This document shows, one piece after another, positions 6,143 to 16,641 of a stretch of 64,000 nucleotides of DNA (the first letter of the stretch is position 1; the number at the start of each line of letters is the position of its first letter). The position numbers and the translations under genes were made by a program. The notes beneath the pieces were generated by a model that was not told where the DNA came from, made no database searches, and was given only the letters and a program-made list of their open reading frames with translations. The stretch is taken from IMG/VR virus record IMGVR_UViG_3300022548_000175, positions 4,111-68,110 of that record; one strand, written 5' to 3'. The DNA is from a virus. Its lineage: Duplodnaviria > Caudoviricetes.

Positions 6143-6940
6143 ATGGCGTCGCAACTGCTCTATAAACTCGCGCAGGAAATTGATAAAAATAAAAGCGCCA
6201 CTTCAGAAAAAGAAAAAAACGCACAGCCAATCGATCCAATGGCGATTATGGATTTTTTTGCTTCAAATTATGATATTACTGACGACCAGTTTCATTCATT
6301 TGCCGAACAAAATGGTTTTAATATCCATGAGGCTGAAGAAATAGCGTATAACCTTGCGTCCGCTTTTATGCAAATGATTCGTGGAGGGCGCGGATATAAT
6401 CTTGACGCCAATTCAGTTGATCCACAGCAATTAAAATGGGGAATGATCATAGAATCCGAGCATAGCTCAATTCCGGCTATTCAGAAAAAAATAGCTCTCG
6501 ATCATCTTGCCGAAGATCCTCAATATTATTCAAATGATATTTTTCAAAAAGAACTTCAAAAAGAATATGAGCAACAAATAGATGAAAATCAAGAGCTTAC
6601 AGGCGAAGAAAAGCAGGCTGCGGAATCTTGTAAAACAAAAAAAATTATGAAGAAAAAATCGGCTATGATTAAAACATCTGCTAAAAAAAATCTTATTAAA
6701 TTTCTCGCCTCATTTTTAGCGCAGTCAAAAAAACAAACGCCGAGGATTGCGAAAGAAAATATATCAAATGTTCAAAGAATGCTTGAGGCCGGCCCGGGAA
6801 AGCCTGTTAGCAAATCATTTGGGATCCCTAAAAAATCTTCGTTGAATCCTTCGCAAGTTTTAAGTCCAAAAACCATTTCAGGGCTCCAAAAAGTCGTTAC
6901 TAGCCTAAAAAAAAGAAATATAACTAATATAACTAAATAA
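6143..6940 (+). CDS. DUF5661-like domain protein
   Basis: QLKWGMIIESEH...KKIALDHLAEDPQYY motif; RBS AAGGAG. Confidence 0.7.
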   Translation: MASQLLYKLAQEIDKNKSATSEKEKNAQPIDPMAIMDFFASNYDITDDQFHSFAEQNGFNIHEAEEIAYNLASAFMQMIRGGRGYNLDANSVDPQQLKWGMIIESEHSSIPAIQKKIALDHLAEDPQYYSNDIFQKELQKEYEQQIDENQELTGEEKQAAESCKTKKIMKKKSAMIKTSAKKNLIKFLASFLAQSKKQTPRIAKENISNVQRMLEAGPGKPVSKSFGIPKKSSLNPSQVLSPKTISGLQKVVTSLKKRNITNITK

Positions 6941-6970
6941 AAAGAGGAGCATTTACTGCTCCTCTTTTAT
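6939..6970. terminator. Bidirectional intrinsic terminator between convergent blocks
   Basis: AAAAGAGGAGCA-ttta-c-TGCTCCTCTTTT. Confidence 0.8.
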
Positions 6971-7124: not shown

Positions 7125-7421
7125 CTACCTCTGCATAAAGGCGGAAAGTAGTTCACAATGATTTTCAAGTAGCCTCTCAAATACAGGCGTTGTTACCACA
7201 GACCCGACATATATCGGCAGCTCGTTTGGTTTTATTTTTTTTGCTCTTTTAAATACTCTTTTTGAATATATTATTTTATAACGATTACGATATTTGGAGA
7301 AAGACGAGGCGAGAAGAGAGCATGATATGGCGTTCTTTTTAATTTCTACATCCGTGACAAGATCAAAATCATTTGGGTTATTATACGAAATGATATATGC
7401 ATGATTCATATTAATCCCCAA
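7125..7421 (-). CDS. Hypothetical protein with LPLxIG-type tag
   Basis: ELPIYVGSVVTTPVFERLLE. Confidence 0.65.
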   Translation of the reverse strand: MGINMNHAYIISYNNPNDFDLVTDVEIKKNAISCSLLASSFSKYRNRYKIIYSKRVFKRAKKIKPNELPIYVGSVVTTPVFERLLENHCELLSAFMQR

Positions 7422-7886
7422 TTAATTATGACAATCCACTATGACAAGATAACCTGAAGTCACGCCCTTATCGAATAAGAATTTTTTAACAGGAGTATCT
7501 TTCAGGTCGTCATCATAATAAACTATTCCATCAACGATAAGAATACAGCATGTTAAATCATCTCGTACTTTACTTAATTTCATAACATCCGATTTATGGA
7601 ATGATGAATTTTTTAATTTCATTCCCGTTCCATGGCAATACCCACAGGATCTTGACGTATCTTTACAAGAGCATTGTGTATAATTTCGATAATCACTTAA
7701 AAATTCATGTTCAGGCAAATGGTCTCCGGACCATCTCCCGCCAATAACATACCAGTCATAAAATTTTTCTTCACAAGAATCGTCATTGTTATAGCTATAT
7801 TGCGACATGATATTATTTATTAATACTTTTAATTCTGAGAGTTTTTTTGGCCTTTGAGGAATCCAGACTTCGCAGTGATAATGCAT
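7422..7886 (-). CDS. Hypothetical phage protein (DWYVIGGRW motif, CxC..CxxC insert)
   Basis: 154-aa ORF; FYDWYVIGGRWSG; CSC...CGYCHGTG. Confidence 0.65.
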   Translation of the reverse strand: MHYHCEVWIPQRPKKLSELKVLINNIMSQYSYNNDDSCEEKFYDWYVIGGRWSGDHLPEHEFLSDYRNYTQCSCKDTSRSCGYCHGTGMKLKNSSFHKSDVMKLSKVRDDLTCCILIVDGIVYYDDDLKDTPVKKFLFDKGVTSGYLVIVDCHN

Positions 7887-7991
7887 AATTTTATCCTTTT
7901 ATTTTATATTCTAATTTCTGTTATATCAAAATTTTCTACCAAATCAAAATATTCACTTTTCCATAGCTCATGATTTTAATCGCAGAAACAG

Positions 7992-8474
7992 TCACTTTTT
8001 ATTATGTTTCCATTCTTGTTCCAAAAGTTTATCTAGATTTTTATCAATACCAATTAATAGTGGGTGTAATTGTTTTATCTTGATTATCTTATCAACCAAA
8101 TTTTTATAGTTCAAAATGTCTTCTGGAAGATTAAACCCAATTTTTGTGAATATATTAGAGCTTATATAAAAGATATTATTTATGTCTTCGAATAGATTTG
8201 AAGGGCTTTCGCCATATGACATACCTCCGGCAATCAATACGTACAAATGCTGAATTTCTATGACTAAGCTTTCCCGATGATTTCCTCTAATAGCCCTCTC
8301 AATATTTTTCAATTTCTTGTGTATAATTTTTTGATTCCAATTAATACCATATTTATCAACAACCCACTCGGATTTGTTGGTTTTAAGAGTGTCTACATAA
8401 TTATGTCCAGCCTTAAAATCTAATATCCTGTTTTTGTCCCATAACAGATATGCAATACATAAGTCGGCACCCAT
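7992..8474 (-). CDS. Hypothetical protein with LPLxIG-type tag
   Basis: LHPLLIGIDKNLDKLLEQEWK; RBS AGGAG. Confidence 0.7.
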   Translation of the reverse strand: MGADLCIAYLLWDKNRILDFKAGHNYVDTLKTNKSEWVVDKYGINWNQKIIHKKLKNIERAIRGNHRESLVIEIQHLYVLIAGGMSYGESPSNLFEDINNIFYISSNIFTKIGFNLPEDILNYKNLVDKIIKIKQLHPLLIGIDKNLDKLLEQEWKHNKK

Positions 8475-8555
8475 AAGAACTCCTTTTATAATTTTCCCCC
8501 GTAAAAATCTATCGATCCTATACTGAGGACTTAAAAGGACTCATAGAAAAGAATT

Positions 8556-9110
8556 CTATACAATCCGGAATGGGGGAAGAACTGGTATTACTGGTAACAA
8601 ATGATTTATTTCTTTAACTAATAGCTCGTACAATTTCTTCGGATTCTTAAGTGATTTCTCTACAATACACTTCAGACGATCATTGCCAATAAACAGAGGC
8701 AGAGCCTCATTTCCATTCTTGATAACAGCAAGCATGAGATCACATATCGGTCTGATATCAGATTCTAAAATAAGCATCTGTCCATCTTGATTGGAAGCTA
8801 CTGCTTGGGATTTTTTCATTCCTGGAACCCAAAAATAATTATACGCACTAAGATCATACTTGGCATCACAATGGTGAATGTAACTCAAATTATGTTGTCG
8901 ACAAAAAGCTGTAAGATTATCGCACATCCCGTAATTAGACGAACCTATTAATTGGATAGCCCCTTTCCCCGCTTCATCTTTTAAATCTGCCTCACTACAA
9001 GGTCCAGTTATTTCCGATAGTTCATTGTTGATAATACAGAGAAATTCTTCAATAAAATTTCTTGGCAGATCGCCTCCAATTTCAATGGACATACCGATAT
9101 ATTCACTCAT
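8556..9110 (-). CDS. Hypothetical protein with LPLxIG-type tag
   Basis: ALPLFIGNDRLKCIVEKSLK. Confidence 0.7.
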   Translation of the reverse strand: MSEYIGMSIEIGGDLPRNFIEEFLCIINNELSEITGPCSEADLKDEAGKGAIQLIGSSNYGMCDNLTAFCRQHNLSYIHHCDAKYDLSAYNYFWVPGMKKSQAVASNQDGQMLILESDIRPICDLMLAVIKNGNEALPLFIGNDRLKCIVEKSLKNPKKLYELLVKEINHLLPVIPVLPPFRIV

Positions 9111-9346
9111 AAATTTTCCTTTTTTGGTTTAATGAACACATCATACATTCTATTATCAAGATTACACACATAAGTCATCGTAAACCCATCTAGTATAGGC
9201 CGTGTATCGATTCTCCTAAAATGATAGGACTCTTTAAGCATAACTTCTGAAACAAAATGCAAGCAATGAGTATAGGCTTTTTTTGGAATATGGTGCGACT
9301 TGGCTATTTTATATAACTCATTAGTTATCGGCATGTACGCCTCCAT
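9107..9346 (-). CDS. Hypothetical protein
   Basis: 79-aa ORF in a tightly packed operon. Confidence 0.5.
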   Translation of the reverse strand: MEAYMPITNELYKIAKSHHIPKKAYTHCLHFVSEVMLKESYHFRRIDTRPILDGFTMTYVCNLDNRMYDVFIKPKKENL

Positions 9347-9677
9347 CTGAAGGAAATGTCTTTTTCAATTTTCTTTCTATGAACCTGTCCAAATGCTCAT
9401 CAAGACCAAGCAACAGTGGTAAATTTTTCTTATGCATTAGCTCTTGTACTTTTTCTTTCTGAACCCTGTATAAATTGGCAACATGTTCCAAGGTTCGACA
9501 ATGAACCATTAAAGACCATGGATAAGTTCTTGATGGTGGCCTAATATGTGAACAGCAACTTTGTTTTTCGTTATCAGATGGATACCATCGACAGCCCTTA
9601 TCCATGCTACCTACTGGGTGAACTATGCGTTCTTTTCTATGTAACCATTCAATTAAAGCTTCTTGTTCAGGTGTCAT
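9321..9677 (-). CDS. Hypothetical protein with LPLxIG-type tag
   Basis: NLPLLLGLDEHLDRFIERKLK. Confidence 0.7.
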   Translation of the reverse strand: MTPEQEALIEWLHRKERIVHPVGSMDKGCRWYPSDNEKQSCCSHIRPPSRTYPWSLMVHCRTLEHVANLYRVQKEKVQELMHKKNLPLLLGLDEHLDRFIERKLKKTFPSDGGVHADN

Positions 9678-9680
9678 TTT

Positions 9681-10163
9681 TTAGCCTTCCTCTTTTAAAA
9701 GTTGCTCAAAATATGTAGTATTGTTCATACCTAAATATAGGAGCAATTCCTGAATAGATACTTTTTTATAACTTGAAACATCTTCCAAGCCGAATGGCGC
9801 ATAACGCCAATTAATAGTACGTCGTCTGTATTCAATGAAAATAAAATCATCTACCCAATCCACATTACTAGCCAGTAAAGTGACTTTTATAGAATTATTG
9901 TTATGTTTAACAATCAAAACTAAAACTACAATGTTAGACAGAGTTCTTAATTCATAAATTGAACGAGGTTCTAAAACAGCCCATTTATTTTTTAGAGTCA
10001 TTATTTTCTGTTCAGACTTTATAGTGGCCTCTATACGACGAATGTTTATATCATCAATAATATGAGCTATATTCCTAGGAAGTCGCGCCCCATAAATTCC
10101 AGAGTCCTTCATAGCCTGAACTAGACAAGGTATCCATTTCTTTGCTTTATTAATTGTTTTCAA
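9681..10163 (-). CDS. Hypothetical protein with LPLxIG-type tag
   Basis: ELLLYLGMNNTTYFEQLLKE. Confidence 0.65.
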   Translation of the reverse strand: MKTINKAKKWIPCLVQAMKDSGIYGARLPRNIAHIIDDINIRRIEATIKSEQKIMTLKNKWAVLEPRSIYELRTLSNIVVLVLIVKHNNNSIKVTLLASNVDWVDDFIFIEYRRRTINWRYAPFGLEDVSSYKKVSIQELLLYLGMNNTTYFEQLLKEEG

Positions 10164-10353
10164 TGCCTGATTTAATCTTTGTATTTTATTTATAATCTCG
10201 TCCAGAGGGCGGTTTTTTATTCAGAACTGTAACCAAATAAGACCGAACAGTGCCCGTATCTCATTCATTATTCAACCCTTTGCAGACTCTGATAGATGGC
10301 CCGGTCGGTTTCCGGTATACTGGGCTGGGTTACATATGAATAGAAGGCCTGAT

Positions 10354-10692
10354 TCATTGTTTCATCCTTTCCCCAATAAGCCTGTCTAGTTCTGGGTCCA
10401 AACCTATAAGCGCCGGCAAGACTTCCTTATGATCCAGAATCTTCTTCAGTAGACCTACATTTATACATGATTTTCCGATAACCCCAGAAGCCAGTTCTTG
10501 GTTTATTCCATTTTCCTGCCATTTGATCTGAGCGACGAAGAAGGTATCCTCTTTCGTTTCCTCATTGTGTTGCACACGGACATAAATAGCCCCGTCCCAT
10601 GACGCGGCATAAGTCTCTATTCCAGACTGTTTTGACCCACACCGTGTTGCCTCACCACGACAACCTTGTAGTGACCCGTAGAAATGGCTCAT
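10354..10692 (-). CDS. Hypothetical protein with LPLxIG-type tag
   Basis: MSHFYGSLQGCRGEATRCG N-terminus; VLPALIGLDPELDRLIGERMK. Confidence 0.7.
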   Translation of the reverse strand: MSHFYGSLQGCRGEATRCGSKQSGIETYAASWDGAIYVRVQHNEETKEDTFFVAQIKWQENGINQELASGVIGKSCINVGLLKKILDHKEVLPALIGLDPELDRLIGERMKQ

Positions 10693-10994
10693 TCATCCCC
10701 TTTTAAAATTTTTTCAAAACGTTTTGAGGAGTATTTAAGACTAATATATACCGGCAGGTCTTCACGCTTTATGCTCTTATAAGGGCTCCTAAATGGAACT
10801 ATACGAGGACATTCGCCTACGTCAAGTTCAAAATCTGAAGCTAAAACGTCGACCTCAAAACCGTATCTCAATATTTTTTCAACGACGCCAATAGCGCAAT
10901 GCCCATTACTTTTAAACTCAATAAGCGTTCCCACGAAATCAGTTTTATTTTTTTGGGGCGGGCTTATATCGATTTTTAGCGGCCTCTCAGGCAT
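10689..10994 (-). CDS. Hypothetical protein with LPLxIG-type tag
   Basis: DLPVYISLKYSSKRFEKILKG. Confidence 0.7.
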   Translation of the reverse strand: MPERPLKIDISPPQKNKTDFVGTLIEFKSNGHCAIGVVEKILRYGFEVDVLASDFELDVGECPRIVPFRSPYKSIKREDLPVYISLKYSSKRFEKILKGDE

Positions 10995-11024
10995 TAATAT
11001 CCTCCATTATAAGATAATACACAA

Positions 11025-11729
11025 TTATTTTTTGTTAAATCGTATTATGTTCCCTTCCTTGTCAAATTTCAGATTATTAATTTCTATAGTATCTATAACG
11101 GCTTTATCAGAAATCAAATAATTATAATCTTTTTCTAAATCACGATATATCTCATTCGAGAGCTTATACCGGACGTCTTCCAGACTTTTTTCCAGATACA
11201 TCAGCAAGTTAGCATGCACTTCTAGGCCGGATTTGATGCGCTCTTCTATAAGTTGTTTGGAAAATTCCTCTTTAAATGACCCTATAAGAAGTGGAAGCTC
11301 ATTAACTGGAGTATTGATAATTTTTTCAAATTCATCCCAATCATCGGGCCCATTATAATATCCTTCAAAACTAACGCTGCGGGTATTTGAATGAACATAA
11401 TGATGATCAATTGTTTCAATCTTATAATATGGATTACAAAGTTTTATAATTCTTAATTCCATTTCATTAAATTTTAAAGATTTTGCGGCTTTATAAGCGT
11501 CTATGTCGGCGTTAAAACAAGCGCCGTCCCCTTGAGACCAAAACCCACTGAAGTATATTTTAGCGTCATTAAAACCATGCTCTGCAAGTTTTTCTTTCCA
11601 GAAATCTATTGTACTTTCATACCAAGTGCCGTTTTCAACATTAATTTCGCGGAATTTTTTGAGAACTTTTTCTTTAGCATTTTCAGAAAGTTCTCTAAAT
11701 TGATATACCATAATTTCTACGGTTCTCAT
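11025..11729 (-). CDS. Hypothetical phage protein with internal LPLxIG-type tag
   Basis: YFSGFWSQGDGACF core; internal ELPLLIGSFKEEFSKQLIEERIK. Confidence 0.75.
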   Translation of the reverse strand: MRTVEIMVYQFRELSENAKEKVLKKFREINVENGTWYESTIDFWKEKLAEHGFNDAKIYFSGFWSQGDGACFNADIDAYKAAKSLKFNEMELRIIKLCNPYYKIETIDHHYVHSNTRSVSFEGYYNGPDDWDEFEKIINTPVNELPLLIGSFKEEFSKQLIEERIKSGLEVHANLLMYLEKSLEDVRYKLSNEIYRDLEKDYNYLISDKAVIDTIEINNLKFDKEGNIIRFNKK

Positions 11730-12013
11730 AAAGAAATTCCTTTCAAAATATTTTCCATGTGCTCTGTAACATACCCATGTAAATACAAAGGAAGGTCATT
11801 AACAGCCAATTCCTTTATTTCAGGAAGCATTTTAATAATGAGCCTCCCCCAGTACATAGAAGCAAAAGAATTCGAGAAATAACTTTTCTCAGACGACAAC
11901 ACTTTGAATTGATAAGAAGAATTATTAAAACCTACACCGAGGTATATTCCTACCACCCATCCTATCGATTCGTCGTGTATATAATATATCTTACCTTCTG
12001 ATAGTGTATACAT
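11726..12013 (-). CDS. Hypothetical protein with LPLxIG-type tag
   Basis: DLPLYLHGYVTEHMENILKG. Confidence 0.7.
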   Translation of the reverse strand: MYTLSEGKIYYIHDESIGWVVGIYLGVGFNNSSYQFKVLSSEKSYFSNSFASMYWGRLIIKMLPEIKELAVNDLPLYLHGYVTEHMENILKGISL

Positions 12014-12015
12014 AA

Positions 12016-12243
12016 CTACTCCGGGCGGTTATACAAAACTTTTCCCACTTTTCGCGCGACATATATACAATCATCAAAAGCCACAAGTTTATTATAATCA
12101 AGCCCTGGATAATTTAAACGTTTTTTGACAATATGGCAGACATTTCGCGCTTGTTTTTCGTCTTCGGTTATAAGAATAATATCGCCATAAAGATAATCAT
12201 CATTTGGAATGCATCGAATTGTGATAACTAAATAAACCACCAT
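12016..12243 (-). CDS. Hypothetical protein
   Basis: 75-aa ORF in packed operon. Confidence 0.5.
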   Translation of the reverse strand: MVVYLVITIRCIPNDDYLYGDIILITEDEKQARNVCHIVKKRLNYPGLDYNKLVAFDDCIYVARKVGKVLYNRPE

Positions 12244-12244
12244 A

Positions 12245-12703
12245 TCACGCCTCTTTCAATCGTTTATTATATATTTCTTTCGCTTTCTCTGTTTTCAGAG
12301 TGCCCATAAGCAAAGGTAAATTTTTTTGCCTACAATTAAGGACTTTGAAGCACTCGTCGAGTTCTTCTATGCTTATCATGGATGTTTCTATAACGCTGTT
12401 TGAATCTTTAAAATAGCCACTCCACCACGCGTCTTTTTTAGAAACTTCAAGAGTCAGGCAATCAAACAGTTCTTCATATTCTTTATATACCGGAGACTCT
12501 TCGGTAGAATTATCCAAATCACGAGTTAGAAATTTAGGACTGCAATTCCGGTCACGAATAGTAAAGACGTCAAGCTCTATCGATTTTTTATTAAGCAATT
12601 TTATTCTTTTAAAAAGTTTTTTGTCAATAGTGACCTCGGCTTTATCGGGGCCTTGCATATATTCTTCGCAATATATATTTAAAAGAAATTCGACAGATTT
12701 CAT
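12245..12703 (-). CDS. Hypothetical protein with LPLxIG-type tag
   Basis: NLPLLMGTLKTEKAKEIYNKRLKE; RBS AGGAGGAG. Confidence 0.7.
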   Translation of the reverse strand: MKSVEFLLNIYCEEYMQGPDKAEVTIDKKLFKRIKLLNKKSIELDVFTIRDRNCSPKFLTRDLDNSTEESPVYKEYEELFDCLTLEVSKKDAWWSGYFKDSNSVIETSMISIEELDECFKVLNCRQKNLPLLMGTLKTEKAKEIYNKRLKEA

Positions 12704-12726
12704 AACTCCTCCTTGTGCGTTCTTAT

Positions 12727-12752
12727 AAAAAGGGGCCGCTAAAAACGGCCCT
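12727..12752 (-). terminator. Intrinsic terminator after the VWA gene
   Basis: Minus strand GGGCCG-TTTTTAG-CGGCCC followed by a T-run. Confidence 0.6.
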
Positions 12753-14076
12753 AATACTCTTTCAAATGAACTTTCAACCCCCAGTCTACAGGTGCGGCGG
12801 CCCCATTACATAAACACCAAAGAACCCGAACCCCTTCAGGCTTTTTTGGAGCCGGGGCGCACCCATCCGTTAAAACAATTAATGCTTTGTATTTTTTATC
12901 TTGAGCAAGATTCATAACCGCTTGAAAATCTGTGCCCCCTCGGCCTTTGAAATCAAACTTAACCCTTTTTCTATTAAAAGGAATCGGGCCTTGTTCAATG
13001 CCATGATCAAAAACACACATATCTATTGGAAAGAAATCAATCATAGTATTGATGACGCCAAGAAATTGCCCTAGAAGTTCTGAACTTATGGATCCAGAAC
13101 TGTCTACGGCCGCTAATACTTTATCGACATGGATTCTTTTATAGCCAGGGTGTATATATCCAGTCCTGCGGTTTGGTCTTTTCCTAGTAGACTCTCTGTC
13201 GTTCCAAATGATATTGCCGCAAAACTGGCGAATAAAAGGTTTCCAATTTATTTTGCGGGTTTGCGCGGCAAGTATTTGTTCTTTATCAAAGCCGGGAATA
13301 TCCCCCCACATTTCATTGCGATCAATTTCTATGATCTTCGCCCGAACACGCTCGTCGGCGATTTCATTCTCTTTCCAATCATCGTGCCCATCAAGCATTC
13401 TAACTTTTATTTTTATATTTTTATTTTCTATTTTTTCGTTTGATTTTGAACTTTTTCCTGATTTATTATCGCCGCTTAAGTTTGAATTATTCTTCAAATT
13501 ATCGCCATCCTTTTTTTCGCTCTTCGAGCGGGGCGAGTTCTTTAAATCATTTTTTTCATTGCCCGGCATTTCAATCTGTATCTGAACTTGAGGCGTTCTC
13601 TTTTTCAAGAATTCATAATACCATTCCGCAGATTGCCTTTCTTCTATATCCTTGTATATTTTTTCTTTCTTAAATTCAGATACATGACATCCTATTAACT
13701 TGCCATTTTTGTCTCTGGGTATCTTACAACCGTCATCTTCATGAATTAATTCATTAACGGCTAAATCATAGGCTATATTGCCTAGTTCATAATTATCGAA
13801 CCGCCGGCTCGTACAATGATGAAGCACGAGATGAAGTATTTCATGATTAAGAACATAAGTTAACTCTTCGTCTTTAAGACTATCCACCCATTCCACGTTA
13901 TAGGATAAATCAAAACGACCATCATCCGTAACGCGAACGCTCATTGTTGGGACATGTGCAGAAGGTGTTTTCCTCATCATACCCAGAATTTGATGAACAA
14001 ACCGGCGGCGTATAATAAGAAAATTGATTGCCCATTCAAACCGCTTGATGGCTTTTAGTGAATCGTTTTCAGCCAT
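12751..14076 (-). CDS. DUF2201-type protein: N-terminal HExxH metallopeptidase-like domain plus C-terminal VWA domain
   Basis: LNHEILHLVLHH; MIDAS VDSSGS, GRGGTDF, VLTDG; adjacent to AAA ATPase. Confidence 0.85.
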   Translation of the reverse strand: MAENDSLKAIKRFEWAINFLIIRRRFVHQILGMMRKTPSAHVPTMSVRVTDDGRFDLSYNVEWVDSLKDEELTYVLNHEILHLVLHHCTSRRFDNYELGNIAYDLAVNELIHEDDGCKIPRDKNGKLIGCHVSEFKKEKIYKDIEERQSAEWYYEFLKKRTPQVQIQIEMPGNEKNDLKNSPRSKSEKKDGDNLKNNSNLSGDNKSGKSSKSNEKIENKNIKIKVRMLDGHDDWKENEIADERVRAKIIEIDRNEMWGDIPGFDKEQILAAQTRKINWKPFIRQFCGNIIWNDRESTRKRPNRRTGYIHPGYKRIHVDKVLAAVDSSGSISSELLGQFLGVINTMIDFFPIDMCVFDHGIEQGPIPFNRKRVKFDFKGRGGTDFQAVMNLAQDKKYKALIVLTDGCAPAPKKPEGVRVLWCLCNGAAAPVDWGLKVHLKEY

Positions 14077-14138
14077 TACAAGCCCCTTTCTATAAAAATG
14101 AGAAGGGCCGGATTATTTATCCGGCCCTATCACAATCT

Positions 14139-15299
14139 TTATGAATTAATAGCCGATTGTTTGCCAAGAAGCTGCATTGTATATTCCATAATTTTGGGGT
14201 GTTCTTTATACCACCGAGATGCTTCTTGCCGATATTTAAGCGTAAACAGGCTCCAAAAACCTGACGCCGCCTCTTTACTGATACAAAGATAAAATTTTGC
14301 CAGGTTATCCGACTGCTTCTTGTTCATCTTTTTATCGCCGTCAATGAGATATTCCACAAGTATTTTGCTGTAAAAAGCAACCTCGTTAACCTCCATATTA
14401 GAGAATGTTTTTTCCATATCCTTATTGAAATTGTTTAGAATTTCTTCCGGAGAAAAGATTTTATAATCTGTCCGGATATATTCTACAAAATTTAGGGCTA
14501 TTGTCGTACCCAAATACCCCCTTGCTAAAAGAATGAGATAATCCAGCTTCTTTAATGGATCATAATTTTTAGACGCTTGATATTTAATTGCTTCGCTAAA
14601 CATTACCCATGACCTGCGAGATGGGTAAACCACTCCTGGCTCTATTTTTTCCGGCGTATCCAAATCGTTAGGAATCTTGGTAATATATTTCACGATAGCG
14701 TCATGAACTCCAATAGATTTCGCATAATCAAGCCATTCTGGGACTGTAGGCTTGAAATCAATCACGAAAAATCTATCCTGAAGGGCTGGATCCATCTCAA
14801 GGACTTGATAAGATCCTTGACCGTCCGGGTCGCCGTTAATAGCCGCTACTACGCGCCATCCGGCCGGAAGCCGGTTCAAATTTAATCGATAATCAAGAAC
14901 TATCTCAAATCCGGCTTGCTGGACTTCTCTTGGCGCCCTATCCAGCTCGTCTAAAAATAGAATACCACAAGAATCGGGATCGCGCGGAAACCATACGGGT
15001 AAGTCATGCACCATAACATTATTAATGGTCTCGACTTGATCTATATACTTTCCATCTTTAAATACATTTTTAGTCACCTTAAATGTATCCACTGACCGAG
15101 GGAGACCAATAATATCGCCGGCTTCCCGCTGGCTTAACCTGATATCAATAAATCCAAATGATTTTCCGGTTTCTACAGACAGCTCTTGCGCTGACTGTTT
15201 TACAACTTCAGATTTTCCAAGACCATGGCGGCCGCGGATAAGTATCGACTGGCGGGGAGGAAAATATTTCAAAGTAAACTTTGTCTGGCTGATATTCAT
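14139..15299 (-). CDS. MoxR-like AAA+ ATPase
   Basis: Walker A GRHGLGKS; Walker B LFLDELDRA; EMDPALQDRF; PSRRSW. Confidence 0.88.
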   Translation of the reverse strand: MNISQTKFTLKYFPPRQSILIRGRHGLGKSEVVKQSAQELSVETGKSFGFIDIRLSQREAGDIIGLPRSVDTFKVTKNVFKDGKYIDQVETINNVMVHDLPVWFPRDPDSCGILFLDELDRAPREVQQAGFEIVLDYRLNLNRLPAGWRVVAAINGDPDGQGSYQVLEMDPALQDRFFVIDFKPTVPEWLDYAKSIGVHDAIVKYITKIPNDLDTPEKIEPGVVYPSRRSWVMFSEAIKYQASKNYDPLKKLDYLILLARGYLGTTIALNFVEYIRTDYKIFSPEEILNNFNKDMEKTFSNMEVNEVAFYSKILVEYLIDGDKKMNKKQSDNLAKFYLCISKEAASGFWSLFTLKYRQEASRWYKEHPKIMEYTMQLLGKQSAINS

Positions 15300-15325
15300 A
15301 GAAACTCCTTTTAATAATTCTTGTA

Positions 15326-15598
15326 TTAAGCAGGCTCAATTTTTGTACCAAGGCGTATTTCTTCAAGTATTGAAGATATATGTTCACAACGTTCAAGTCC
15401 TCCGACCCATACTACCGCCCGGCCTGTATTATGCGCCTCGAGCATTATAGCCGTCGCCTGTTGTCTTCCATACCCCGTCGCTTCCATTATCTGATTGACA
15501 ACCTCATCCATGCTATGATTATCATCATTAAATAAAATGACTTTGTATGGCTTGCCAAGATTGATGTTAACGTTAGTTTTGTTGAGTATTTGTTCCAT
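15326..15598 (-). CDS. clpS: ATP-dependent Clp protease adaptor ClpS
   Basis: YKVILFNDDNHSMDEVV...ATAIMLEAHNTGRAVV signature. Confidence 0.9.
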   Translation of the reverse strand: MEQILNKTNVNINLGKPYKVILFNDDNHSMDEVVNQIMEATGYGRQQATAIMLEAHNTGRAVVWVGGLERCEHISSILEEIRLGTKIEPA

Positions 15599-15634
15599 AT
15601 TATACCTACTTTATAAATTTGTATTTTGAAGATT

Positions 15635-16330
15635 TCAATCTTTAGATTTAATTCTTATTTTTTTTAGTCTTTGTTCTAATGCCATTTTTCCAGCCTCTGT
15701 TTTCATAGTTCCAATAAGAAGCGGTATTTCAGATTTAGGGCACTCCAAGGCTTGTCGCCGTTCTATTATTGCCTGGCAATCGCTTCTATCATAAAAATTC
15801 TTCAATTGTTCATAACTACAATGCCGTGCAATAATTTTTGACCATGCTTTCATAGGACCTTGTATTAAACCTCTAAAAGAGTTTTCACTGAGCTCTCGTA
15901 TACTTAAAAGAAAATCTTTCCACGATTTCATTTCACGACCGAGCTCTTGTTTCATGAATTCAAAGGCATTACAAGGGCATGAATCTGAAAACATTAATGT
16001 AAAAATTTGTGATCCTATATTTATATCTTCCCAGTTACCACAATCTTTTGTTATAGTCATCCCTTTTGAATATATTACGGCTTCGGGTTGTATTTCAAAG
16101 ATGGATTCAAATAAATCGCCGTGTGCATGCCAGCATCCATATAAACTTATTTTTCCACTATATAGTATTCGATATCCAAGGTGATCATATGAACGGGCCT
16201 TGATTCTAAAATGAATTTTATTTCCATTGCGTTCTAAAAATAGAAATTTAAGATTTCCATGGTATTTTTTTTCATTTACGCGGGCAAGGGCTTGCTCCAT
16301 ATCTTGTATATTAACGCCTTTTATTAACAT
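15635..16330 (-). CDS. Hypothetical protein with LPLxIG-type tag
   Basis: EIPLLIGTMKTEAGKMALEQRLKK. Confidence 0.7.
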   Translation of the reverse strand: MLIKGVNIQDMEQALARVNEKKYHGNLKFLFLERNGNKIHFRIKARSYDHLGYRILYSGKISLYGCWHAHGDLFESIFEIQPEAVIYSKGMTITKDCGNWEDINIGSQIFTLMFSDSCPCNAFEFMKQELGREMKSWKDFLLSIRELSENSFRGLIQGPMKAWSKIIARHCSYEQLKNFYDRSDCQAIIERRQALECPKSEIPLLIGTMKTEAGKMALEQRLKKIRIKSKD

Positions 16331-16641
16331 TGTTTAAGTTTCCTTTCTAGCTCTTTTTTTCCTTCGGCGGTGGTTAACTGATCTATAAGCAGAGGAAGTT
16401 TATCCGGTTCGGTTTTATTAACAAGCTGAATCTCTTGAAAAAGTATTTGAAACTGAAAAACCTTTCCGCTATATCTGCATTTTACGCATTCACAATATGA
16501 ATCCTCATCCCATTCGGTATCCCCTAAACTCTCAGTGCCACTATCATAGACTGTCATAATGGCTTTAGTTTCGATTAAAAAAGGCTCTTCCGATTTGCAC
16601 TCAGGACACCTCATCCCCGCCAAACAATTTGTATTAGACAT
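16324..16641 (-). CDS. Small Cys-rich (zinc-ribbon-like) protein with LPLxIG-type tag
   Basis: CPEC...CECVKC; KLPLLIDQLTTAEGKKELERKLK. Confidence 0.7.
   Translation of the reverse strand: MSNTNCLAGMRCPECKSEEPFLIETKAIMTVYDSGTESLGDTEWDEDSYCECVKCRYSGKVFQFQILFQEIQLVNKTEPDKLPLLIDQLTTAEGKKELERKLKQC

Follow-up and report, generated by a model that had tools for sequence, protein, structure and literature searches.

The window analysed here is a stretch of 64,000 nucleotides, comprising bases 4111-68110 of the 68,110-base-pair IMG/VR record IMGVR_UViG_3300022548_000175. CheckV estimates this record to be about 38% complete, and its source is therefore a large uncultured phage. Between positions 7125 and 16641 of the window, 18 densely packed open reading frames (ORFs) lie on the minus strand, with plus-strand gene blocks on either side. 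A first-pass annotation had reported that twelve of these ORFs share a motif, and we found that all twelve exist on the minus strand and carry it. In the window the motif reads [KR]x[DE]-L-P-L-[LYF]-[ILM]-G, followed by a short loop and a helix ending in LLKG or RLK; we refer to this element as the tag. All 12 copies lie within 9.5 kilobases (kb) around the genes for a ClpS homologue, a MoxR-type ATPase and a vWA-domain protein, and none was found elsewhere in the 68 kb. The features of the block are given below.

7125-7421, minus strand: tagged ORF, 98 amino acids; tag at 7161-7244 (..NELPIYVG..FERLLEN, subtype LPxY..FE..LL, 22.9 bits).
7992-8474, minus strand: tagged ORF, 160 amino acids; tag at 8001-8087 (..LHPLLIGIDKNLDKLLE.., subtype LIGxD..LD); orthologue at L114:8836-9309.
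8556-9110, minus strand: tagged ORF, 184 amino acids; tag at 8640-8714, then a second conserved tail, LLPxxPxLPP; family present in 6 loci.
9321-9677, minus strand: tagged ORF, 118 amino acids; tag at 9363-9440 (..KNLPLLLGLDEHLDRFIERKLK).
9681-10163, minus strand: tagged ORF, 160 amino acids; tag at 9687-9770 (..QELLLYLG..FEQLLKEE).
10354-10692, minus strand: tagged ORF, 112 amino acids; N-terminal 44 residues similar to phrog_5927; tag at 10357-10443.
10689-10994, minus strand: tagged ORF, 101 amino acids; SH3/Sm-like barrel; tag at 10695-10781 (REDLPVYIS / KRFEKILKG, two modelled helices, 39.5 bits).
11025-11729, minus strand: phrog_5162 family member, 234 amino acids; tag at 11232-11321, within approximately 37 residues absent from other members.
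11726-12013, minus strand: tagged ORF, 95 amino acids; tag at 11735-11818 (..NDLPLYLHG..MENILKG).
12016-12243, minus strand: untagged ORF, 75 amino acids; its homologue P0163 is tagged.
12245-12703, minus strand: tagged ORF, 152 amino acids; alpha/beta body without a fold match; tag at 12251-12343.
12751-14076, minus strand: zincin-like metallopeptidase and vWA fusion, 441 amino acids; DUF2201_N (N-terminal, HEILH) and DUF2201 (C-terminal, with a metal ion-dependent adhesion site, MIDAS, DSSGS..T..D); candidate reader of the tag.
14139-15299, minus strand: MoxR-type AAA+ ATPase (AAA_5), 386 amino acids.
15326-15598, minus strand: ClpS homologue, 90 amino acids (PF02617, E 1.3e-19).
15635-16330, minus strand: tagged ORF, 231 amino acids; tag at 15659-15748 (..SEIPLLIGTMKTEAGKMALEQRLKK, subtype LIGT.KTE).
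16324-16641, minus strand: tagged ORF, 105 amino acids; zinc-ribbon-like body (CPEC..CVKC); tag at 16330-16422.
14104-14128 (after MoxR), 12733-12751 (after the vWA gene) and 6940-6968 (block end), minus strand: terminator-like hairpins.

Enrichment of the motif over shuffled controls had been set beforehand as one check on the proposal. When the whole 68-kb contig was translated in six frames, the regular expression [LI]P[LIVA][LYF][LIVM][GSHD] gave 11 matches, 10 of them inside the block, as against 1.8 +/- 1.3 (maximum 7) in 200 residue shuffles, and the motif is thus clearly enriched. Related loci were fetched using an alignment of MoxR homologues, which provided 80 IMG/VR loci (MoxR 28-40% identical) and 80 metagenome loci (37-77%). 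With a profile built only from the tags of other genomes, the 12 ORFs ranked as the top 12 of 644 six-frame ORFs of the contig, scoring 8.1-37 bits, while the best score in the reversed-sequence control was 6.3 bits. No other ORF of the contig, putative structural ones included, scored with this profile, which bears out the earlier statement that the tag is absent from the structural genes. The shuffles and the independent profile rule out a chance origin of the motif.

The codons of the conserved Leu, Pro and Gly were observed to vary synonymously among copies (CTG/TTA/CTT/TTG; CCG/CCA/CCT; GGG/GGT/GGC/GGA), which indicates that conservation is at the protein level and that selection acts on the protein and not on the DNA. 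These synonymous differences also rule out a DNA-level repeat, a promoter, a regulatory site or a recombination element. Alignment of the copies gave the consensus h-x-h-h-x-x-[KR]-[DE]-L-P-L-[YL]-[ILM]-G-[WLY]-x-Y-K-[ST]-x-x-F-E-x-L-L-K-G-E and, among 64 non-redundant copies, the first Leu is conserved in 89%, the Pro in 91%, the second Leu in 80% and the Gly in 72%. The three subtypes proposed at first each recur across genomes, and on that account we call them old. One part of the initial description needed correction: the length had been put at about 25 amino acids, and the conserved unit instead spans approximately 30-35 residues. In 10 of the 12 ORFs LP is found 21-33 residues before the stop; the distance is 48 residues in ORF 8556 and 90 residues in ORF 11025.

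The tag is not confined to this window. In 30 of the 43 closest metagenome loci we identified 94 copies, and an improved profile gave 122 matches at 8 bits or more, compared with 2 in reversed sequences. Nearly all of these matches (120/122) share the strand of MoxR, and most follow the vWA gene directly. Measured from where the profile match begins, some ten residues ahead of LP, the stop is a median of 30 residues away. Tags were also present in four relatives binned into metagenome-assembled genomes (MAGs), and were absent from 39 MoxR loci that are cellular or more distant. When 1.84 billion representative proteins were searched with the profile, 47 matched at E <= 0.001, of which 46 are real and one is a repeat artefact. 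Of the real matches, 45 are proteins of 64-259 amino acids with the module at or near the C-terminus, and the other is a 452-amino-acid protein with two copies; no cellular protein was among the 47.

Two variants of the tag were observed in related loci. On the peatland contig Ga0187871_10001502 (L139:1214-16200), about 28 tandem ORFs of 63-135 amino acids carry a near-uniform ..DLALYTHWPxHTKEFWDLLNET, in which Ala takes the place of the otherwise 91%-conserved Pro. In a marine clade represented by L125:991-14206, the neighbours of MoxR and vWA belong to nucleotide metabolism and comprise a PurA-like adenylosuccinate synthetase, a GMP-reductase/IMPDH gene interrupted by a Hint domain, ThyX, a DHH protein and an M16 peptidase, and one conserved protein of approximately 230-290 amino acids bears the variant ..LP[LM][LF]LxN[RK]N[LV]K...[EQ]RMxxG.

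Searches of existing catalogues were uniformly negative. Pfam-A, PHROGs v4 and NCBIfam 20 gave no match over the tag in the window proteins tested against each, no Pfam or PHROG family covered it in the 46 library proteins, and PADLOC returned nothing relevant. The best hit of a PDB profile search with the tag was Hjc at E 0.39, which is at chance level; a look-up of the tag in the ESM Atlas yielded no usable lead, and a word-index search for longer tagged proteins was dominated by chance candidates. A degenerate DNA pattern for the tag had 0 matches in IMG/VR, a result that is uninformative since, of approximately 120 tags detected locally, this pattern picks up just about 1. Full-text searching of the literature for the motif strings and for phage MoxR, vWA and ClpS found no description of the tag. 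A known, catalogued domain is ruled out by the negative Pfam, PHROGs, NCBIfam, PADLOC and PDB profile searches; no domain library searched contains the module, which is conserved across a single lineage of uncultured phages. Two individual candidates were also rejected. The helix-hairpin-helix motif (h-x-x-h-P-G-h-G) does not agree with a tag that has one Gly only, reads LPxxhG and not LPGhG, is modelled as helical over LPLxxG and gave no helix-hairpin-helix match at E < 0.1. A villin-headpiece-like LPLW..LKK..G element is a misfit in its spacing and Gly pattern, and there were no Pfam matches to it.

The lineage itself is remote from phages in culture. Megablast against cultured phages revealed no close relative, and the window MoxR is at most 31% identical to that of any cultured phage (tblastn); it has hundreds of metagenome homologues at 45-74% identity. 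An IMG/VR scan with this MoxR as a single protein gave no match, and a homologue search with ORF 15635 returned only the self match. Related contigs have been placed in MAG bins of Thermoplasmatales, Proteobacteria and KSB1, which are mutually discordant; the binning is probably wrong, so that a host cannot be assigned from the bins.

Two tagged ORFs, 10689 and 12245, were modelled as single chains with AlphaFold2. In both models the tag has a predicted local distance difference test (pLDDT) score above 90, and bodies of different fold end in a common two-helix tail. In ORF 10689, a helix at residues 77-85 (REDLPVYIS) is joined by a short turn to a helix at 91-97 (KRFEKIL), and the body is an SH3/Sm-like barrel. 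In ORF 12245, a helix at 126-132 (QKNLPLL) and one at 139-151 are separated by a six-residue loop and preceded by a further helix, and the body is a nine-strand alpha/beta fold. According to these models LPLxxG forms a short helix, begun by D/E-x-P and ended by the Gly, and not a strand, and the module as a whole is predicted to be a two-helix hairpin. Foldseek found no significant match for either model, the best for ORF 10689 being KapB, an SH3 barrel with a helical hairpin, at E 0.02-0.05.

Four of the five positions that form the core of helix 1 are hydrophobic (L 89%, L 80%, L/Y/F, I/L/M). This exceeds what helix 2 could bury, and a further surface, on the body or on a partner, would therefore be needed. 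One possible partner is a second tag. A hairpin with surplus hydrophobic positions would be a classic dimerisation unit, and two of them could form a four-helix bundle that draws the tagged proteins into mixed oligomers, with the three subtypes as pairing classes. The coexistence of three conserved subtypes in one genome and the natural two-tag proteins speak for such self-association. However, the single-chain models are confident without a partner, and it is hard to see why dozens of unrelated proteins should assemble together; we consider this explanation improbable.

The partner might also belong to the host. The C-terminal peptide of FtsZ has the pattern D-[IV]-P-x-[FY]-[LM]-[RK], followed by a short variable tail, and [DE]-L-P-L-[YF]-[ILM] of the tag agrees with it superficially; the marine variant ..LP[LM]LLxNRN[LV]K.. 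may be set beside it. If the tag mimicked this hub peptide, or a chaperone-binding Leu-rich segment, it could dock the whole panel on a host machine, and a universal host target would suit the conservation of the tag across habitats. Against this, Gly and not the basic residue of FtsZ follows the hydrophobic pair in 72% of copies, the 47 significant library matches include no cellular protein and no FtsZ, and the segment is predicted to be helical and paired with a second conserved helix which FtsZ lacks. Mimicry of a host hub seems to us very improbable indeed.

The tag had initially been described as modular and as grafted onto unrelated N-terminal bodies. After removal of the tag, none of the 12 window bodies clustered together in BLASTP, and 64 non-redundant tagged proteins fell into 49 body clusters. 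In related phages the module thus extends over no fewer than 40 protein families. Database matches identified DUF1281_C / Api92-like and DUF4241 (Pfam) and phrog_5162 and phrog_5927 (PHROG) among the bodies, and MORN-like HREDGPA repeats and a zinc ribbon were recognised by eye. No body matched any family of known function, and their proposed identity as host-takeover or anti-defence proteins thus found no support. Cultured phages commonly encode relatives of ORF 11025-11729. Compared with the homologues from Av-05, PHA46 and CBB, this ORF has approximately 37 extra, tag-bearing residues, and the tag is here an internal insertion. The L082 orthologue of ORF 12245 stops short of the tag, which has been lost there, and P0163, the homologue of the untagged ORF 12016-12243, has gained one. 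Additionally, five library proteins have two tags, each after its own body. The unrelated bodies, the insertion within the phrog_5162 protein, the tagged and untagged orthologues and the natural two-tag fusions together support the initial description well.

These observations bear directly on an alternative that requires no common partner at all, in which the hairpin is the C-terminal cap, and the best-conserved piece, of one huge and fast-diverging paralogue family. In favour of it, many of the LPLY-type proteins are small and rich in beta structure, and the patterns G-x-h-Y and h-h-A-S recur in them; the modelled SH3/Sm-like barrel and hairpin of ORF 10689 weakly resemble KapB, and the roughly 28 tandem small genes of L139 look recently duplicated. 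It does not account well for the insertion of a tag within a phrog_5162 protein, when cultured phages commonly carry untagged relatives of it, nor for tags on DUF1281, DUF4241, MORN-like, zinc-ribbon and 150-230-amino-acid alpha/beta bodies, and the tagged and untagged orthologues and two-tag fusions also argue against it. We regard a single paralogue family as unlikely.

Two further observations concern individual ORFs of the block. The orthologues of ORF 8556-9110 in L082, L084, L097, L106 and L114 have a post-tag tail ..LLPxxPxLPP[FL]xI.., and this family is the sole one in which a second conserved element regularly follows the tag. The untagged ORF at 7422-7886 (minus strand, 154 amino acids) contains a DnaJ-type zinc-finger-like CxxCxGxG (CGYCHGTG) after CSC..C, and has no Pfam match.

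With respect to its position in the chain, 60 of 85 copies were observed to end no more than 3 residues past the module, and the other 25 have 4 to 242 extra residues. The last residue is not conserved and varies over 17 different amino acids. The module is independent of a free C-terminus. A degradation tag had been among the functions suggested at the outset; a classic C-terminal degron of the ssrA type is disfavoured by the unconserved last residue, the 25 extended copies and the internal and two-tag copies. A broader turnover signal can be envisaged, whereby recognition by a host protease, or by a phage AAA+ pathway assisted by ClpS, would restrict how long the proteins of the panel persist. 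The mostly C-terminal position and the operon shared with ClpS, MoxR and a zincin peptidase are consistent with this, as is the presence in relatives of a second AAA_5/CbbQ-type ATPase, accompanied by a CobT-type vWA protein, and of a Cdc48/FtsH-type AAA protein. Yet the variable chain ends and internal copies remain unlike ssrA-type degrons, a confidently predicted and well-folded hairpin is atypical of a degron, and ClpS reads N-terminal residues, not C-terminal modules. Control of turnover is, in our estimate, distinctly unlikely as the general function of the tag.

The additional proteins just mentioned were observed upstream of MoxR, at L082:3158-6446 and L085:1783-3366; the Cdc48/FtsH-type protein is a classical AAA protein, and the AAA+ complement of these relatives of the window phage is unusually rich. 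In the 68-kb contig, about 38% of a genome, BLASTP at E <= 1e-5 matched none of these extra AAA+ and vWA proteins.

A scan of the block for promoters gave matches no commoner than in shuffles, and inspection of the intergenic regions by eye revealed no motif in common. In the 190-nucleotide gap at 10164-10353, RNA structure was not significant (z = -0.58) and Rfam gave no match. The strand and the terminators of the block are relevant to another explanation, namely that the tag is a virion-loading signal by which the panel is packaged for co-injection, analogous to the capsid-targeting sequence of T4 or the cargo-loading peptides of encapsulins. Diverse small accessory proteins are the kind that phages are known to deliver. 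The MoxR and vWA-peptidase pair has moreover been proposed to act in virion assembly (PMC7824862). On the other hand, the tag genes are opposite in strand to the flanking plus-strand genes and have their own terminators, no other ORF of the contig, putative structural genes included, carries the tag, and sequence searches revealed no similarity to known loading peptides. We find virion loading very unlikely.

We favour a reading in which the tag is a common docking handle. The shared element is a portable mini-domain of approximately 30-35 residues, made up of an amphipathic lead-in, helix 1 ([DE]-L-P-L-[LYF]-[ILM] + Gly), a loop of 3-6 residues that often has an aromatic residue first and contains T/S, and helix 2 of the form ..[FL]-E-x-L-L-K-G or ..LE-x-R-L-K. 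This mini-domain has been fused C-terminally to many unrelated small accessory proteins of one uncultured lineage, with at least one internal insertion, and the tagged genes form same-strand arrays around the ClpS - MoxR - zincin/vWA set. In our reading one receptor would recognise the whole panel through the common handle, and the panel would consist of clients subject to joint control of their activity, assembly or lifetime. Since the module is short, selected, predicted to fold and portable, and occurs on proteins of one virus that are otherwise unrelated, the simplest reading of these sequences is a handle by which a single reader recognises them all; this is plausible, although we would stop somewhat short of calling it probable.

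The gene context points to the MoxR / vWA-zincin pair as the candidate reader. As described above, all window copies surround these genes, and the ClpS-MoxR-vWA genes of L139 have tagged ORFs on either side, about 28 in all. The HExxH motif and the MIDAS motif DxSxS..T..D are invariant in 56/56 vWA proteins, and judged by these residues the candidate reader looks functional. In such a scheme the vWA MIDAS site would capture the module, MoxR would remodel the client, and the fused peptidase may cut it. That this pair is the reader of the tag is a doubtful proposition on the sequences available. Slightly more doubtful still is the full scheme, in which the hairpin would be the client handle of a phage MoxR / vWA-zincin machine, possibly with ClpS, that processes, activates or times the removal of host-takeover or anti-defence effectors.

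Several observations weigh against the docking-handle reading or against this choice of reader. No tags were found in the 80 IMG/VR loci whose MoxR is 28-40% identical, and some more distant MoxR/vWA phages have a single tagged protein only, which means that the ATPase pair does not require tags. ClpS is absent within +/-10 kb of the tag-rich L118, L120 and L107. Every related locus was fetched through MoxR, so that the linkage of tag and MoxR is biased by sampling, and since the contig represents only about 38% of the genome, the gene for the actual reader may lie outside it or in the host. At the level of the module, the residue ahead of LP is acidic in only 58% of the 64 copies and could be a simple helix cap, and in the SH3-type proteins the modelled hairpin may pack onto its own barrel.

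The docking of many proteins on one partner has well-known precedents. Short address peptides with one reader include the T4 capsid-targeting sequence, encapsulin cargo-loading peptides, clamp-binding and SSB tails, and ssrA-type degrons. The phage tag is like these elements in that many otherwise unrelated proteins carry the same short conserved piece, for the most part at one end of the chain. It is unlike them in being longer, in its two predicted helices, in tolerating internal positions, and in having neither a conserved terminal residue nor a sequence match to any of them. The idea of a shared tag read by a common partner is thus already known, and what is new is the module itself.

The closest parallel to the proposed reader is provided by bacterial vWA-MoxR conflict systems. 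vWA MIDAS sites bind peptides (PMC7159879), and the systems have been associated with zincin peptidases whose substrates are small, rapidly diverging precursors that end in a conserved peptide such as FxSxx-COOH (Kaur, Burroughs, Iyer, Aravind 2020, PMC7159879). The phage locus resembles them in combining a MoxR AAA+ protein, a vWA domain and a zincin-type peptidase beside small proteins that are variable in their N-terminal part and conserved in a C-terminal piece; the zincin that characterises the peptide-processing system is present, DUF2201_N and DUF2201 lying in one protein beside the AAA_5 MoxR. There are also clear differences. The phage peptidase is fused to the vWA domain and the element is viral, at least 12 clients occur per phage genome in place of one precursor, and the clients are folded bodies of many families. 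The LPLxxG...LLKG module, with two helices and 30 residues, is not of the FxSxx, RxD, acidic or FtsH-associated type, and no VMAP, AP-ATPase or radical-SAM partner was seen in the phage.

A MoxR and peptidase-vWA pair has been described in T4-like (group 2.2) jumbo phages and proposed to function in virion assembly (Iyer et al. 2021, PMC7824862). The present locus shares with those phages the MoxR, the vWA protein with an N-terminal metallopeptidase, and a phage ClpS. It differs in that the paper names no shared client tag, and in the low identity (<=31%) of the window MoxR to those of cultured phages.

Other arrays of small proteins beside MoxR were identified by a crude scan for 4-mers common to the C-terminal ends of the ORFs in each MoxR locus. 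In L031:11102-20779, which belongs to a complete 158-kb genome with terminal repeats (IMGVR_UViG_3300014208_000003), we observed an unrelated C-terminal module, ..[DE][IV]PE..(9-11 residues)..DPF[FL]EI[DE]xxR. Strong matches to it number approximately 37, with 40 at E <= 0.01, and most of the open frames concerned are 80-110 amino acids long; about 27 of the matches lie at 58.5-69.1 kb adjoining MoxR (~69.4-70.4 kb), with smaller clusters at 130-132, 139 and 143.5 kb. In L035:1196-8718 and L056:5728-7993, both from IMG/VR, 8 and 4 ORFs respectively, of 57-98 amino acids and upstream of MoxR/vWA, have ..[LF]EVISE[SG]R or variants of it at or near the C-terminus. In L042:7886-20383, 16 ankyrin-like paralogues around MoxR and vWA have the common ending ..NNFYVK[FY]LILERLYN..; this set looks like a paralogue family and not a tag on unrelated bodies. 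The occurrence of unrelated tag arrays beside MoxR suggests a general habit of large phages, of which the MoxR / vWA-zincin client machine would be one case: one tag, one AAA+ reader and many clients.

Large phages spend many genes on small proteins of unknown function. A shared portable handle would mean that such proteins can be dealt with as a group, and a single reader would open dozens of dark-matter families. The module is short, predicted to fold and apparently transferable, and it might serve as an orthogonal docking tag. If it is true that the MoxR / vWA-zincin pair is the reader, the tagged proteins would provide the first client set, and the tag the recognition rule, for a widespread but obscure group of phage AAA+ chaperones.

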